Part shown: piece after piece, positions 6,789-23,390 of the stretch
How positions within the stretch are numbered: position 1 is the stretch's first letter
Layout: the number at the start of each line of letters is the position of its first letter
Assembly: GCA_965198855.1 (NCBI GenBank)
Contig: CBDAPZ010000002.1
Location: 414,613 to 438,612 of the forward strand
Source of the DNA: Acetobacteraceae bacterium
GTDB taxonomy: Bacteria; Pseudomonadota; Alphaproteobacteria; Acetobacterales; Acetobacteraceae
DNA length: 24,000 nucleotides
Direction: 5' to 3'
The notes under the pieces: generated by a model
What the model saw: the letters and a program-made list of their open reading frames with translations, nothing else
The model's database searches: none
What the model was told of the DNA's origin: nothing
Translations under genes and position numbers: made by a program

Positions 6789-6863
6789 CTGTCGCAGATT
6801 TAACCGGCAGCGGTGCTTAGGACCAAAAGTTTTTTGGTTCTTTTTTTCAAAAAAGAACTGCTT
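6789..6863 (-). repeat. AT-rich nested-palindrome element, copy A (core plus type-2 arm)
   Basis: aaaagttttttggttctttttttcaaaaaagaactgctt matches copy F2 (23337-23377) with 1 mismatch in 41 nt. The upstream ccggcagcg and ctgtcgc words are shared with the core of copies C and F. Confidence 0.8.
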
Positions 6864-7051
6864 GCTTCGATCATTGTTTCTCCGCTAGCGCCGCTAGTTC
6901 CAAGCGGCAAGCTTGTTCGAGTTGCCGATTGACTATCCACGAGCGTCCAGATGATTGGTGCGGCTATGGTGTGATAGCCCTGGCGCAGCACATTTCCGAT
7001 TGCCGACACCCAGGGCCAAGGTATGGCGCGTAGGAAGAGCGCGTCAAAAGC
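6800..7051 (-). pseudogene. Truncated, catalytically degenerate HepT (DUF86/HEPN) toxin remnant downstream of MNT
   Basis: The frame after the MNT stop reads AFDALFLRAIPWPWVSAIGNVLRQGYHTIAAPIIWTLV. This aligns to the DUF86 pattern IPWrdIaGmRNrLvHeYfgvDldivWdtv with R->G and H->Q at the Rx4H motif. About 80 N-terminal residues are absent. The 3' end (SSSFLKKRTKKLL) is encoded by repeat copy A. Confidence 0.45.
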
Positions 7052-15041: not shown

Positions 15042-15380
15042 ATGAAGTTGGTGATCGCCATCGTCAAACCTTTCAAGCTCGATGATGTACGTGAGGCCCT
15101 TACCCCGCTTGGGGTGCAGGGACTGACCGTGACCGAGGTGAAGGGGTTTGGACGGCAGAAGGGGCAGACGGAAATCTACCGCGGTGCCGAATACCGCGTG
15201 CAGTTCGTGCCCAAAGTGAAGATCGAGGTCGCGATCCCCGCAGACCAGGCCGATGCCGTGATCGAGGCGATCATCCGCTCCGCGCAGACCGGCAAGATCG
15301 GCGACGGCAAGATCTTTGTGCTCGATCTCGAGCGTGCGGTCCGTATCCGCACCGGCGAGACCGATGCTGCTGCTCTCTGA
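15042..15380 (+). CDS. glnK: P-II nitrogen regulatory protein
   Basis: 112 aa, MKLVIAIVKPFKLDDVREAL...TVTEVKGFGRQKGQTEIYRGAEY (T-loop Tyr51). Sits 11 nt upstream of amtB. Confidence 0.92.
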   Translation: MKLVIAIVKPFKLDDVREALTPLGVQGLTVTEVKGFGRQKGQTEIYRGAEYRVQFVPKVKIEVAIPADQADAVIEAIIRSAQTGKIGDGKIFVLDLERAVRIRTGETDAAAL

Positions 15381-15391
15381 AAGGATTTGAG

Positions 15392-16879
15392 ATGAAGTTC
15401 TCCGCCCTCAAGGCGCGATTGGCGGCACTTGTGCTGGTGGCGCCGCTGCTGTTCACCGGTGTTTCGGCCTTCGCCCAGGCACCCGCGCCCGATGCCACTC
15501 CGCCTGCCGCAGCAACCCCGGCACCCGCCACACCCGCACCGGCAGCAACACCGGCACCGGCCACAGCGGCACCCGCCGCAGCAGCCCCCGCAGGCCCAGC
15601 CAAGCCGCCCGCCTATGACCATGGCGATACCGCCTGGATGCTCACCTCCACAGCGCTCGTGCTGATGATGACCATCCCAGGCCTCGCCCTCTTCTATGCC
15701 GGCATGGTCCGCCGCAAGAACATCCTGGCCACCGTGATGCAGAGCTTCGCCATCACCGCGCTCATCACCATCGTCTGGACCGTGATCGGCTACTCGCTCG
15801 CCTTCACCAACGGCACCGGCGCTTCGGCACCCTATATCGGTGACCTCTCGCGCCTCCTGCTGCACGGCCTCGAAGCCAATTTCTCCAAGCAGGACGACAC
15901 CGGCTTCATCCTCGGCGCCGGCGTCCCCGGCGTTACCCCGGTGCCCTACACGATCCCTGAGAGCGTCTACATGATGTTCCAGATGACCTTCGCCATCATC
16001 ACCCCGGCGCTGATCGCCGGCGCCTTCGCAGAGCGCATGAAGTTCTCCGCGATGTGCATCTTCATGGTGCTCTGGTCGATCTTCTCCTACTCGGCCATCG
16101 CCCACTGGGTGTGGGCACCCACCGGCTGGCTGTCGACCATGGGCACGCTCGACTATGCCGGCGGCACCGTGGTGCACATCAACGCAGGTATCGCCGGCCT
16201 CATGTGCTGCCTGGTGATGGGCAAGCGCCGCGGCTACGGGCATGACAACATGTCGCCTTACAACCTCACCTACGCGGTGATCGGTGCTTCCCTGCTCTGG
16301 GTCGGCTGGTTCGGCTTCAACGCAGGCTCGGCCACCAGTGCCGGCGGCCGTGCCGGCATGGCGATGACGGTCACCCAGATCGCCACTGCTGCTGCGGCCC
16401 TCGGCTGGATGTTCGCCGAGTGGATCGTCAAGGGCAAACCCAGCGTGCTGGGCATCATCTCCGGCGCCGTTGCCGGCCTGGTCGCCATCACGCCCGCTTC
16501 GGGTTTCGTGCTCCCGGGCGGCTCGATCATCATCGGTGTTGCTGCCGGCGTGATCTGCTTCCTCTCGGCCTCTTACCTCAAGCACCTGCTGGGCTATGAC
16601 GACAGCCTCGACACCTTCGGCGTGCACGGCGTCGGCGGCATCGTCGGCGCGCTGCTCACCGGCGTGTTCGCGTCCGCCACCATCGGCGGCACCGACGGCT
16701 CGATGGCGCAGTTCATCATCCAGTGCAAAGCCGTCGCGGTCACGCTCATCTGGAGCAGCCTGGTTTCGCTGGTTCTGCTCTACGGCCTCAAATTCACCAT
16801 CGGGCTCACCGTCAGCCCCGATGAGGAAATGGAAGGCCTCGACACCGTCCTGCACGGCGAAAGCATCGGCGGACATTAG
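15392..16879 (+). CDS. amtB: Ammonium transporter AmtB with a Pro/Ala/Thr-rich N-terminal linker
   Basis: 495 aa. Signal peptide, a ~45-aa PA-rich segment, then Amt/MEP motifs (DTAWMLTSTALVLMMT..., DYAGGTVVHINAG, FGVHGVGGIVGALLTG). Confidence 0.92.
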   Translation: MKFSALKARLAALVLVAPLLFTGVSAFAQAPAPDATPPAAATPAPATPAPAATPAPATAAPAAAAPAGPAKPPAYDHGDTAWMLTSTALVLMMTIPGLALFYAGMVRRKNILATVMQSFAITALITIVWTVIGYSLAFTNGTGASAPYIGDLSRLLLHGLEANFSKQDDTGFILGAGVPGVTPVPYTIPESVYMMFQMTFAIITPALIAGAFAERMKFSAMCIFMVLWSIFSYSAIAHWVWAPTGWLSTMGTLDYAGGTVVHINAGIAGLMCCLVMGKRRGYGHDNMSPYNLTYAVIGASLLWVGWFGFNAGSATSAGGRAGMAMTVTQIATAAAALGWMFAEWIVKGKPSVLGIISGAVAGLVAITPASGFVLPGGSIIIGVAAGVICFLSASYLKHLLGYDDSLDTFGVHGVGGIVGALLTGVFASATIGGTDGSMAQFIIQCKAVAVTLIWSSLVSLVLLYGLKFTIGLTVSPDEEMEGLDTVLHGESIGGH

Positions 16880-16995: not shown

Positions 16996-18039
16996 ATGAG
17001 TAAGTACAAACTGGAGTATATCTGGCTCGACGGGTACACCCCCGTGCCAAACCTCCGAAGCAAAACGCAGATCAAGGAATTTGCGGCATTCCCGGCCCTC
17101 GATGAACTGCCATGGTGGGGCTTCGACGGTAGCTCCACGAAACAGGCCCCCGGCGGCAGCTCCGACTGCCTTCTCAAACCGGTCGCTGTCTACCCCGACA
17201 GCACCCGCCTGAACGGCGCATTGGTGATGTGCGAAGTGATGCTGCCCGACAAAGTAACGCCGCATCCGTCCAACGGACGCGCCACCATCCTCGACGATCC
17301 CGGCGCCTGGTTCGGCTTCGAGCAGGAATATTTCCTCTACAAGGACGGCCGGCCCCTCGGCTTCCCGACCGCCGGCTTCCCCGCGCCGCAGGGCCCGTAC
17401 TACACCGGCGTCGGCTACAGCAATGTGGGCGACATCGCACGCAAGATCGTCGAAGAACATCTCGACATCTGCCTTGATGCCGGCATCAACCATGAAGGCA
17501 TCAACGCCGAAGTGGCAAAAGGCCAATGGGAATTCCAGATCTTCGGCAAGGGCTCTAAAAAAGCCGCCGACGAGATGTGGGTCGCCCGCTACATCCTGCA
17601 GCGCCTCACCGAGAAATACGGCCTGGACGTCGAATATCACTGCAAGCCGCTCGGCAATTCCGACTGGAACGGCTCTGGCATGCACGCGAACTTCTCCACC
17701 ACCTACCTGCGCGAGACAGGCGGCAAGGAGTATTTTTTAGCGCTGATGGCAGCTTTCGAGAAAAACACGAAAGAACATATCGCCGTCTACGGTCCGGACA
17801 ACCATATGCGCCTGACCGGCCACCACGAGACGCAGTCGATCGACCAATTCAGCTGGGGCATCGCCGATCGCGGCGCCTCCATCCGCGTGCCGCATAGCTT
17901 CGCCAATAACGGCTTTCGCGGCTATCTGGAAGATCGCCGCCCGAACTCGCAAGGCGACCCATACCAGATCGCCTCGCGCATCCTGGAGACCATCGCTTCG
18001 GTCCCTACGGATGCCGAGGCGAAAGTCGCTGCGGAGTAA
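16996..18039 (+). CDS. glnII: Glutamine synthetase type II (eukaryote-like GSII)
   Basis: MSKYKLEYIWLDGYTPVPNLRSKTQI...FGFEQEYFL...NAEVAKGQWEFQI...GSGMHANFS. GSII-type length and motifs. RBS gggaagg upstream of ATG 16996. Confidence 0.9.
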   Translation: MSKYKLEYIWLDGYTPVPNLRSKTQIKEFAAFPALDELPWWGFDGSSTKQAPGGSSDCLLKPVAVYPDSTRLNGALVMCEVMLPDKVTPHPSNGRATILDDPGAWFGFEQEYFLYKDGRPLGFPTAGFPAPQGPYYTGVGYSNVGDIARKIVEEHLDICLDAGINHEGINAEVAKGQWEFQIFGKGSKKAADEMWVARYILQRLTEKYGLDVEYHCKPLGNSDWNGSGMHANFSTTYLRETGGKEYFLALMAAFEKNTKEHIAVYGPDNHMRLTGHHETQSIDQFSWGIADRGASIRVPHSFANNGFRGYLEDRRPNSQGDPYQIASRILETIASVPTDAEAKVAAE

Positions 18040-18046
18040 ACAGAGA

Positions 18047-18072
18047 GGCCGGGGTTTTCCCCGGCCTTTTTT
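18047..18072 (+). terminator. Rho-independent terminator of glnII
   Basis: ggccgggg (18047-18054), loop tttt, ccccggcc (18059-18066), followed by tttttt. Confidence 0.85.
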
Positions 18073-18078
18073 ACATCA

Positions 18079-20916: not shown

Positions 20917-20984
20917 GAAAGCCGTTTTTTGCTTCTTTTCTTCAAAAAAGAAGGCCTGTTCTTTCCGCCGAAAAAGAACCAGTA
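20917..20984. repeat. AT-rich nested-palindrome elements, copy E (two back-to-back arms)
   Basis: E1 (minus orientation): gccgttttttgCTTCTTTTcttcaaAAAAGAAGg (stem 20932-39 / 20946-53). E2: ctGTTCTTTccgccgaaAAAGAACcag (20956-20982). It lies between the divergent hydrolase and peptidase starts. Confidence 0.65.
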
Positions 20985-21043: not shown

Positions 21044-23257
21044 ATGGCAAGAGTCGGATTGCTGCTGGCATCGTCGGTTTTGGCTTGGGCGTCGGTGGCG
21101 CGGGCGGAAGAGGCATGTTTCACCCTGCTCGCGAAGACGCAGAATTACGGGCTGGGCATGCCACGGCATGTGGTGCCGGAGCCTGACGGCCGGCACGTGC
21201 TGTTCCTGCGCAGCGGCCCGGAGAACACCGAGCTGCGGTTCTATGAGTTCGACTCCGCCACCGGCGCCGAGCGCGAGCTGGCCAAGCCGGCCGCACAATC
21301 CGGGCCGTTGAGCACGGAGGAGAAGGCCAGGCGGGAGCGGGCGCGGGTAACGATGTCCGGCATCGTCGATTACGCGCTGTCGGAGGACGGCAAGACGGTG
21401 CTGGCGAGCCAGGGCGATCACCTGGAGCTGGTGACCCTGCCGGATGGCAAGGCATCGGATGTCCCTGGCAAGGGCTGGATCGCCCCGCGGCTTTCGCCGG
21501 ACGGTCAACATATCGCCGTGGTGAAGGCGGGCGACCTGCACGTGGTGGAGAGTGCCACCGGCAAGGAGGCGGCGCTCACCACCGGCGCCACCGAAACGCT
21601 GACGCGGGGCCTTGCCGAGTTCGCAGCGGCCGAAGAGCTCGATCGCCCGGATGGCGTCTGGTGGTCGCCGGATTCCCAGAAGCTGCTCTATGAGGAAGCC
21701 GATAGCGCCGCGGTGGAAAAGCACTTCATCGCCGATCCCGGAAATCCGTCGCGTGCGCCGGTCGAGTTCCGCTATCCGCGCGCCGGCACCGAGAATGCAA
21801 AGGTGCGGCTGGGGCTCGTCGCGCGCACCGGCGGGCCGACCATTTGGGTCGATTGGGACAGCACGGCCTACCCGTATCTCGTGCGCGTGGTCTGGCCGAA
21901 ATCCGGCAAGCTGAGCCTGGTGGTGATGAACCGGGAGCAGACGATCGAGAAGGTATTGGCGGTGGACCCTTGGACCGGCCACACGCAGGCGCTGCTCACC
22001 GAGACGGACAAGGCGTGGGTGAACGCCAACCCGATGTATCGGCCGAGCTTCGACGGGAAGGATCTGCCGCACTGGTTGCCCGACGGCTCGGGGTTCCTCT
22101 GGGCGGCCGAACGCGACGGCTATTGGCGCCTGGAGCTGCACCATGCGGACGGATCGCTGGACCACGCGGTGTCGCCGGCGGGTAGCTTCCGTTTCGACGC
22201 GCTCGACGACGTGGATATGTCCGACACCAAGAGCGTGGTGGTGACGGCGAGCCCGGAACGCACATCGTTCGGTATCTATCGTCTGCCGCTCGCCGGCGGC
22301 GCGCCGGTGAAGATGGGTGACACGACGGGCATGCACACGGCGGTGTTTGGGCAAGGCGAGCACAGCCTGTTCGCGGACCGCATGTCGCTCGCCGACGGCA
22401 CTGCCGGCACCGCGCTGCGCAAAAACGACGGCAGCCTGGTCGCCATGGTGCCAAGCCGGGCCGCAACACCTCCTTCCATCCCGAAAGTGCAGTATCTGAC
22501 GGCAGGTTCGCAGAATTTCGATGCTTTCGTGCTGCGCCCGGCAGGTTTTCTCGCCGGCCGTAAATATCCCGTCATACTCGCTGTCTATGCGGGACCCACG
22601 CTGAAGAACGTGGTGAACGCGCCGCGCGCCTTGCTCGAGGATCAATGCCTCGCCGATCACGGTTTTATTGTCGTCACCCTCGATGGTCGCGGCACGCCCG
22701 GGCGCGACCATGATTTCGAACGCGCCGTCAAAGGCAATCTGATCGATGCCCCCCTCGCCGACCAGATCGATGGGCTAAAAGGTCTTGCTGAAAAGGTGCC
22801 GGAAATGGATCTTTCCCGTGTGGGCGTAGAAGGTTGGTCATTCGGCGGCTATTTCACCGCCATGGCGATGACACGCCATAGCGACGTGTTTGCCGCGGGC
22901 GTCGCAGGCGCGCCCGTTGTCGATTTCGAGGATTACGACACGGCCTATACCGAACGCTTTCTCGGAACGCCGCAGGCGGCGCCACAGGCCTATCACGTCA
23001 GCAATGTGCTGACATATGCATCAGGTTTGAAAAATCCACTGCTAATTTTCCATGGTTTGACCGACGACAACGTGTATTTCGAAAATACCGTGAAGCTCAC
23101 GCAGGCACTGCTCGCAGCAGGCAAATCGTATCAGCTCGTATTGCTACCGGGCACACATATGCTGACGGATCCGGTTTTGCGTGCACGCGTCAATGAGATG
23201 CGTGCGACGTTCCTGCAGGAAAAATTGGGAACACAGGAAGGGAAGAAGCAAGGATAG
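21044..23257 (+). CDS. S9-family serine peptidase (DPP-IV-like N-terminal propeller plus prolyl-oligopeptidase catalytic domain)
   Basis: Signal peptide MARVGLLLASSVLAWASVARA after RBS gaggg. Catalytic GWSFGGYFTAMA (GxSxGG), then ...HGLTDDNV...PGTHM (Asp/His). The ORF-track start at 20534 overlaps the opposite-strand hydrolase and is rejected. Confidence 0.85.
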   Translation: MARVGLLLASSVLAWASVARAEEACFTLLAKTQNYGLGMPRHVVPEPDGRHVLFLRSGPENTELRFYEFDSATGAERELAKPAAQSGPLSTEEKARRERARVTMSGIVDYALSEDGKTVLASQGDHLELVTLPDGKASDVPGKGWIAPRLSPDGQHIAVVKAGDLHVVESATGKEAALTTGATETLTRGLAEFAAAEELDRPDGVWWSPDSQKLLYEEADSAAVEKHFIADPGNPSRAPVEFRYPRAGTENAKVRLGLVARTGGPTIWVDWDSTAYPYLVRVVWPKSGKLSLVVMNREQTIEKVLAVDPWTGHTQALLTETDKAWVNANPMYRPSFDGKDLPHWLPDGSGFLWAAERDGYWRLELHHADGSLDHAVSPAGSFRFDALDDVDMSDTKSVVVTASPERTSFGIYRLPLAGGAPVKMGDTTGMHTAVFGQGEHSLFADRMSLADGTAGTALRKNDGSLVAMVPSRAATPPSIPKVQYLTAGSQNFDAFVLRPAGFLAGRKYPVILAVYAGPTLKNVVNAPRALLEDQCLADHGFIVVTLDGRGTPGRDHDFERAVKGNLIDAPLADQIDGLKGLAEKVPEMDLSRVGVEGWSFGGYFTAMAMTRHSDVFAAGVAGAPVVDFEDYDTAYTERFLGTPQAAPQAYHVSNVLTYASGLKNPLLIFHGLTDDNVYFENTVKLTQALLAAGKSYQLVLLPGTHMLTDPVLRARVNEMRATFLQEKLGTQEGKKQG

Positions 23258-23390
23258 ATCTTCTTTTCTGAAGAAAAGAAGCAAAAGACTTTTATGTCGC
23301 GTTGCGGTTCTATCCGGCAGCGCACGCCATAGAAATAAAAGTTTTTTGGTTCTTTTTTTGAAAAAAGAACTGCTTTCCTTTTTTTATCCT
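23250..23390. repeat. AT-rich nested-palindrome element, copy F (full composite: type-1 arm, core, inverted type-2 arm)
   Basis: F1: GGATAGATCTTCTTTTCTGAAGAAAAGAAGCAAAAGACTTTT (23252-23294). Core: atgtcgcgttgcggtTCTATCCggCAGCGCACGCcatag. F2: AAAAGTTTTTTGGTTCTTTTTTTgAAAAAAGAACTGCTT (23337-23377). Outer inverted AAGGATA (23250-56) / TATCCTT (23384-90). Confidence 0.85.

Follow-up and report, generated by a model that had tools for sequence, protein, structure and literature searches.

A high-copy palindromic repeat of Acetobacteraceae lies against gene ends and appears to encode the C-terminus of an S9 peptidase

Small inverted-repeat elements that form long hairpins in mRNA, such as the Correia elements of Neisseria, the enterobacterial repetitive intergenic consensus or intergenic repeat units (ERIC/IRU) and the Rickettsia palindromic elements, can carry terminator or promoter activity or join open reading frames (ORFs); to our knowledge, none of them shares sequence similarity with the repeat of Acetobacteraceae described here. 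This repeat resembles the repetitive extragenic palindromic (REP) sequences of E. coli, Pseudomonas and Stenotrophomonas, with their bacterial interspersed mosaic elements (BIMEs) and hairpin-forming REP doublets (REPINs), in being a short imperfect palindrome with hundreds of copies outside genes, mostly at 3' ends, single or as inverted doublets with fixed spacing, and retained at orthologous sites. REPs of the GTAG type provide TAG stop codons, and those of the CGTC type are missing from Acetobacteraceae (PMC3733652). In Coxiella burnetii, the non-autonomous palindromic repeats QMITE1 and QMITE2 reach into functional genes at their 3' ends, over a few to ~50 bp; the enhC gene of strain RSA 493 stops just before a QMITE2 element, and in the Dugway strain an indel joins enhC to the QMITE2 copy, which supplies 33 C-terminal residues (PMC5896051). 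Here, a 24,000-nt stretch of an Acetobacteraceae genome was analysed (the window, to which all coordinates refer unless a relative's locus is named), in which a gene for an S9 peptidase converges with one for a CoA-binding protein. We consider it likely that the spacer and the last codons of both genes together form one complete copy of a palindromic repeat that is lineage-specific and high in copy number, built like a REPIN or a miniature inverted-repeat transposable element (MITE).

The peptidase gene, whose ATG stands at 21044 and whose N-terminus resembles a signal peptide, ends with aag caa gga TAG (stop at 23255-57), and the convergent CoA-binding gene ends with tgg caa gga TAA (stop at 23384-86), exactly as described in the original prediction. 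The two ends had been taken there for exact inverted copies of 8 nt; the inverted match is exact, and its length is 9 nt. The proposal that the spacer is a composite also held, since the pattern TTCTTTTYTSAARAAAAGAANCAAAARAC matched at 23261-89 on the plus strand and at 23341-69 on the minus strand. Five further arms were found with this pattern in the window, and shuffled sequence gave no matches.

The spacer (23258-23383, 126 bp) corresponds to one full-length copy of the repeat, the parts of which are listed in Table 1. The outer TAA of its right-arm lead (23384-86) is the stop codon of the CoA-binding gene. Its centre carries a clade-specific GGTTCTATCCGGCAG motif, common to the loci L203, L206, L207 and L213 (L- and P-numbers denote loci of relatives), and has predicted energies of -17.1 kcal/mol on the plus strand and -11.1 kcal/mol on the minus strand, weaker than the family median given below. 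When the whole element was folded, a single long hairpin was predicted for the plus strand (-62 kcal/mol, z -5.9) and a cloverleaf closed by the 9-10-nt outer repeat for the minus strand.

Table 1. Features of the peptidase/CoA-binding spacer and other repeat arms in the window.
Feature	Start	End	Strand	Remarks
S9 / DPP-IV-type peptidase gene	21044	23257	+	737 codons plus stop; Pfam DPPIV_N 3e-50, Peptidase_S9 7e-43
CoA-binding protein gene	23384	23809	-	141 aa, C-terminus ...PRLQWQG-stop; Pfam CoA_binding_2 2e-35
C-terminal extension TQEGKKQG	23231	23254	+	eight codons; ACA (23231-33) at the relatives' stop position
9-nt inverted repeat, left copy GCAAGGATA	23248	23256		pairs with 23385-93 in predicted folds of both strands
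9-nt inverted repeat, right copy TATCCTTGC	23385	23393		exact complement match
Left (G-type) arm lead, purine tract CAGGAAGGGAAGAAGCAAGGATAGATC	23234	23260	+	homologous to L213 lead AAGGAAGGCAAGATC; contains peptidase TAG 23255-57
Left-arm hairpin C-TTCTTTTC-TGAA-GAAAAGAA-G	23260	23281	+	pattern match; arm core 23261-89
Centre, CTTTTAT...ATAAAAG closing an imperfect GC-rich hairpin	23289	23341		left A-tract, right TTTTTTGG; mirrored on the other strand
Right (C-type) arm core TTCTTTTTTCAAAAAAAGAACCAAAAAAC with hairpin	23341	23369	-	pattern match
Right-arm lead TAAAAAAAGGAAAGCAG (inward reading)	23370	23386	-	homologous to L203 C-arm lead TAAAGAAGGCAAGCAG, there adjoining the peptidase
Truncated paralogue: G-arm with lead AGGATAGAAAGATC (18078-91) and half a centre	18078	18165	+	directly after a canonical terminator
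Solo G-type arm (copy B of the original prediction)	12545	12573	+	pattern match
Solo C-type arm	6829	6857	-	pattern match
Degenerate arm, 3 mismatches	19971	19999	+	adjoins the stop of the alpha/beta hydrolase gene
G-type arm, divergent hydrolase/peptidase region	20924	20952	-	arms at the same site in L200 and L203

An exact-pattern scan over one genome per species matched at least 119 eight-kb blocks. Among the matches listed, nearly all were from Acetobacteraceae or unnamed Rhodospirillales metagenome-assembled genomes (MAGs), with a few from cultured Gluconacetobacter, Roseomonas and Acidiphilium; cultured carriers include Gluconacetobacter liquefaciens DSM 5603, Acidiphilium sp. PA and Pseudoroseomonas cervicalis. 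Exact cores were also present in MAGs labelled Oscillospiraceae, Clostridia, Eubacteriales or Acidobacteria (L021, L026, L050, L080, L073), which are likely mis-binned contigs or chance matches in A/T-rich sequence. When up to three mismatches were allowed, 300 arms were detected in 1.35 Mb, almost all of it from Acetobacteraceae, comprising 69 inverted pairs (composites) and 162 solo arms, and the spacing was 79-83 nt core to core in 17 of the 23 exact arm pairs. Arms were dense in the window's clade (14 in 50 kb, 1 per 3.6 kb) compared to the loci of distant CoA-binding genes (2 in 440 kb). Rfam gave no match in the whole window at the gathering threshold, only sub-threshold matches to generic long hairpins (miRNA precursors) at E up to 1, and none of four 18-20-nt arm-hairpin strings was found in the open-access papers searched. 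The family is apparently a previously undescribed, abundant palindromic repeat of Acetobacteraceae.

A full-length element measures ~125-135 bp, and its arms and leads make up the inverted repeats. Read inwards, an arm consists of a purine-rich lead, a 10-bp A/T hairpin with a TGAA loop and SCAAAARACTTTTG. The consensus of the lead at -14 to -1 is AAGNAAGSAAGSNS, usually with two or three NAAG units; its length varies in 4-nt steps, so that the element has no fixed terminus. The hairpin covaries: among 65 distinct arms, the closing pair was CG in 32 and GC in 25, and the loop-closing pair UA in 49 and CG in 13. The covariation score was reached in none of 500 shuffles, and it collapsed when the register was slid. 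The centre is variable in sequence, usually a GC-rich hairpin closed by CUUUU:AAAAG, A-rich before and with a U-tract after it on both strands (median of -19.3 kcal/mol in 134 folds, every one of which has 5-7 U among the following 8 nt). Its predicted anatomy is that of a two-way intrinsic terminator, A-tract, GC-rich hairpin and U-tract. In this layout on both strands and in its position between convergent genes, the centre resembles known bidirectional terminators, from which it differs in lying within a dispersed repeat of 125 bp that adds A/T hairpins and purine leads, and in that many copies are solo arms without the GC hairpin. The arms alone were also considered as terminators and rejected, as their stems are A/U-rich, no U-tract follows them in the inward direction, and the copy at 18078 has a canonical, GC-rich terminator immediately next to it.

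The relation of the repeat to gene ends was then followed across the family. Stops of incoming ORFs (long ones with high GC at third codon positions) occurred at 4-6.5 per nt between -24 and -8 from the core, versus 0.06-0.8 farther upstream. Among 121 ORFs that were open down to -30, 99 stopped in the lead, ten at the TGA of the loop and six at a TAA at -7, and these six read first through AAGCAAG, like the peptidase of the window; TGA accounted for 39 of the 121 abutting stops. The share of TAA among stops was 34% near arms versus 14% elsewhere, and NAG was the last sense codon in 23 of 99 arm-abutting genes versus 55 of 912 others (p = 2e-7). Of the 38 composites classified, 35 flanked one or more gene 3' ends, and the remaining three lay between divergent genes. 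In two plasmids of Pseudoroseomonas cervicalis, the composite fills the gap between coding sequences annotated by PGAP and is itself unannotated; these two copies were the only ones returned by the search of the plasmid collection. At the other end of genes, many start codons follow the pyrimidine-rich outer edge of a lead at a distance of 11-30 nt, and no Shine-Dalgarno sequence intervenes (L058, L018, L034, L032 and others), an example being CTGCTTGCTTTCTT-ATG of an ABC permease.

Metagenomic relatives with CoA-binding proteins of ~80-84% identity show synteny over the locus of the window (pirin, glycosyl hydrolase, CoA-binding gene, peptidase and alpha/beta hydrolase); a metagenome scan with the CoA-binding protein gave, among the matches listed, only distant relatives with identities of 73% or less. 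In the nearest clade (L212 and L213), where the element has the same orientation as in the window, the peptidase ends CTC GGG TGA (...KLG-TGA), and the lead AAGGAAGGCAAGATC and then the hairpin come immediately after this stop. At this position, the window reads TTG GGA ACA, then CAG GAA GGG AAG AAG CAA GGA TAG ATC and then the hairpin. Because ACA takes the place of the TGA of L212/L213, the native stop of the peptidase has been lost, and eight codons of the lead are translated. The peptidases of L203, L206 and L207 have the ends EKLH, AKLK and EKLK, respectively, before a TAA and the lead, and among the 30 orthologues read, most terminate one residue past a conserved L. The TAG used by the window peptidase belongs to a GGATAG variant of the lead, which the truncated paralogue at 18078 also has, there after a terminator and not after a gene; the original prediction had noted that GGATAG begins this copy (at 18079-84), and the resemblance that it saw between the purine-rich tail of the peptidase and the lead-in of other copies was borne out. 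The comparison of these sequences settles that the last eight residues and the stop codon of the peptidase are encoded by the purine-rich lead of the element.

The element was further supposed to have inserted into, or replaced, the extreme ends of both genes. This part did not stand, as an element is present at the same site in all close relatives whose spacer was available for comparison (L203, L205, L206, L207, L212 and L213). The orthologous loci point instead to a long-resident element and not to a fresh insertion, into which the peptidase reads after the loss of its own stop. This is the same event, stop loss and reading into a repeat, as that of QMITE2 and enhC in Coxiella, although sequence and host are unrelated and in Acetobacteraceae the association with stops holds across the whole repeat family and is sharp in its position. 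Stop codons supplied by repeats are thus already known from the GTAG REPs and the Coxiella QMITEs, and the Acetobacteraceae family is a new instance.

On the other side of the spacer, CoA-binding orthologues are conserved down to ...MDRCPxIExPRL and variable after it. An alignment of orthologous C-termini, which had been suggested as a check on both gene ends, returned no QG ending among either 30 peptidases or 33 CoA-binding proteins. The CoA-binding genes of relatives end with GMG-TGA, GMK-TAA or GIK-TGA, followed directly by a lead. That of P0007 reads GGA AAG CAA GGC CTT CTT TTC TGA (GKQGLLF-stop), and that of P0003 reads through the lead to ...CAA GCG GTT CCT TTT TGA (...TQAVPF-stop); in both, the stop is the TGA of the hairpin loop. 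In the window, a block [G/C][G/A]A(A)TGG, common to L203 and L213, is followed by CAA GGA TAA where the relatives have the lead. MAFFT, however, pairs the GGATAA of the window with GGATGG of L213, which would make it a mutated native GGA TGG, and because of this alternative pairing a lead origin of the last two residues and stop of the CoA-binding gene is held to be only fairly probable. Therefore, the claim that the element encodes the last residues and stops of both genes is supported by the orthologous loci for the peptidase, whereas for the CoA-binding gene it is probable with an ambiguous alignment.

The orientation of the element differs among relatives. Read from the peptidase to the CoA-binding gene, that of the window is colinear with those of L203, L206 and L207 read from the CoA-binding gene to the peptidase, and against those of L212/L213 it aligns without reversal. 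The lead of the C-arm is conserved together with the TAA at its end (window, TAAAAAAAGGAAAGCAG; L203, TAAAGAAGGCAAGCAG) and adjoins the CoA-binding gene in the former and the peptidase in the latter; therefore, the stop triplet moves with the arm. By protein identity, the window grouped with P0003 and the loci of opposite orientation fell in another group, so a single event would suffice to account for the difference. This may have been an inversion in place, an excision with re-insertion or an independent insertion. A second site also differs in state and orientation, being occupied by a composite in L203 and by a solo arm in both L201 and L207. In L200, no element lies between the CoA-binding gene and the peptidase; a DUF29 gene (L200 5462-5938) is located there, whose start overlaps the stop of the CoA-binding gene, and the CoA-binding protein has a tail of 17 residues.

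The 9-nt match was compared with the leads of the family. The string CAAGGATA was present in just two of 296 arms, namely both arms of this spacer, and its absence from every other copy read rules against the proposal that it forms the outermost inverted repeat of the element family. AGGATA was found in 6 of the 296 arms, three of them within the window, and GCAAGG in 74. Both leads had a string of at least 9 nt in common in 8 of 67 composites, compared to ~11% for leads paired at random across composites; the inverted match is improbable against random sequence, but not unusual within the repeat family. As the rates of sharing are similar for true and random pairs and CAAGGATA is rare, GCAAGGATA is ordinary lead vocabulary (GCAAGG) plus a local GGATA variant and not a family terminus, the GGATA portion being what is particular to this copy. 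Homogenisation between the two arms was tried as a cause of the identical 9-mers and rejected, as shared rare variants numbered 45 against 35.9 expected (P = 0.07, not significant). The two arms of the L212/L213 composite share a GAA-to-GCA change at the inner hairpin foot, which breaks the local hairpins and retains arm-to-arm pairing; a family-wide test of such variants was not significant.

According to the explanation that we consider likely, a dispersed repeat of which the spacer is one copy, the copies sit against gene ends and the stop of an incoming gene would therefore usually fall at the outer edge of a lead. The peptidase would have lost its stop (TGA in the nearest relative, ACA here) and would continue for eight codons through the lead to the TAG of the GGATAG variant, and the CoA-binding gene would stop at the terminal TAA of the other lead, the two codons before it being most probably lead as well. 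The centre would terminate transcription in both directions, and the long hairpin may protect 3' ends. Centres were at least 70% identical in 41% of within-genome pairs versus 15% of pairs between genomes (p = 1e-14), which points to spread or homogenisation of the element within lineages and genomes. A more ambitious version, a self-propagating and orientation-independent gene-end cassette that has been adopted family-wide, provides a stop codon, a two-way terminator and a protective 3' hairpin, flips or re-inserts in place, and remodels C-termini through 4-nt changes in (NAAG)n and occasional stop loss, is rather unlikely.

Apart from the ambiguous alignment of the CoA side, several results speak against a dispersed, terminator-bearing repeat. 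On the minus strand, the centre of this copy folds only weakly (-11.1 kcal/mol, z 0.15), and a simple terminator scan found no terminator in the spacer. T stands at the lead edge in 30% of arms with an incoming gene versus 8% without a gene; as it depends on gene context, the stop is not a fixed part of the element. No transposase or partner protein was enriched near arms in 0.9 Mb, where clustering of 2,261 ORFs of the blocks with arms gave only ordinary gene families, and an all-against-all search of flanks gave no clean empty site and no target-site duplication. Copies within the source genome were counted only from the seven arms of the window. Finally, the sole REP-associated tyrosine transposase found in 1.35 Mb, described below, is bracketed by different, inverted, GC-rich GTAG REPs (GTAGGGTGGGGTGC at 2513 and 3157 of L031).

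As for classification, the repeat shares with REPs a short extragenic palindrome in high copy number and inverted doublets with a spacer of conserved length, and with MITEs terminal inverted repeats, small size, lack of coding capacity and polymorphism of state at orthologous sites; TA is found at both edges of the spacer copy and of several others, although the edge T depends on gene context. Unlike REP, BIME and REPIN sequences, it has an A/T-rich stem in a genome of 63-65% GC, a terminator-like centre and leads that are (NAAG)n tracts of variable length, and a GTAG/CGTC tag is not the consensus at -4 to -1 of the arm, which reads G-S-N-S (GCAG, GCGG, GGCC, GATC). The element behaves like a REPIN or a MITE whose centre resembles a terminator; its membership of either is only putative.

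It is a minor possibility that the element is a true REPIN, mobilised in single-stranded form by a REP-associated tyrosine transposase that recognises the arm hairpins as REPs. The doublets of fixed spacing, the covarying arm hairpins, the copies persisting at orthologous sites and the minus-strand cloverleaf, a form proposed for REPIN recognition (PMC3116915), are all consistent with it. A transposase of this type is also present in a carrier genome (L031 2587-3126, NCBIfam NF047646, 192 bits, found with an approximate E. coli query), but its flanks carry the different GC-rich REP, the arms have neither a GTAG nor a CGTC tag, and the 29-nt core is identical across genera, whereas REP families are usually genus-specific. 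A tblastn search with IS200 TnpA, also an approximate query, gave no match. The region around the transposase (L031 2510-3175) represents another repeat system, unrelated to the A/T-rich arms that the same genome has.

Two other origins are quite unlikely. One is a TA-specific MITE of the IS630/Tc1-mariner type, in which the TA duplication and the first purine of the inverted repeat would rebuild a TAA or TAG on both sides. TA does stand at both boundaries of the spacer copy (TA-GATC...TTTTTT-TA) and at both lead edges in many composites, and TAA is enriched near arms. Nevertheless, TGA accounts for 39 of the 121 abutting stops, T is found at just 8% of the lead edges that adjoin no gene, the leads vary in 4-nt steps with no fixed terminus, and neither a transposase nor an empty site was found; since TGA is common at the edges and the edge T follows gene context, the model was not retained as the leading mechanism. 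The other, which we find just as doubtful, is a gene-end signal evolved by the host, a two-way terminator or a protein-binding palindrome that does not spread and is kept at each site by selection. It agrees with the terminator-like centre, the depletion of composites between divergent genes, an element working in either orientation, and arms ~90% conserved between the window and relatives against 73-80% for flanking coding DNA. It fits poorly with centres that are more similar within than between genomes, with a paralogue at 18078 that has the same clade-specific centre and lead variant, with orthologous sites that differ in state (composite, solo arm, absent), and with arms that also occur upstream of genes and after a canonical terminator. 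Mere coincidence, with a QG-stop ending native to both genes and an inverted match arisen by chance beside an unrelated spacer, is highly improbable and for the peptidase already largely refuted, since, even if a match of at least 9 nt between leads occurs in ~11% of composites and one alignment turns the GGA TAA of the CoA-binding gene into a mutated native GGA TGG, neither set of orthologues has a QG ending, the relatives' peptidase stop lies eight codons earlier and the tail aligns to their post-stop lead.

With a dispersed repeat as the preferred explanation, repeat sequence would make up many of the 3' ends and short C-terminal tails of genes annotated in such genomes, as well as some of the start regions, and stop-codon calls and C-terminal variation among orthologues should be interpreted with the repeat in mind. 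The family combines an A/T hairpin in a GC-rich genome, tetranucleotide leads, a terminator-like centre and changes of orientation at orthologous sites, and its cultured carriers provide a workable system to ask if dispersed palindromes persist by serving as terminators.

Outside the spacer, a canonical intrinsic terminator (GGCCGGGGTTTTCCCCGGCC plus T6, 18047-18072) follows a gene ending at 18039, with the truncated copy of the repeat immediately next to it; ordinary terminators are therefore also used in such genomes. Some arms have hairpins broken by GC-rich inserts, such as CGGAGCCCGCCCTGCGGG (L201, about 1400-1450) and GTTCTTTCCGCCGAAAAAGAAC (window 20958-20979). A 24-codon ORF, MIEASSSFLKKRTKKLLVLSTAAG (6800-6874, minus strand), with a GGAGAA Shine-Dalgarno sequence 3 nt upstream, consists almost wholly of a solo arm and is probably due to chance. 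An imperfect tandem repeat (15503-15593) encodes Ala/Pro/Thr-rich sequence in the N-terminal part of the ORF at 15095-16879.

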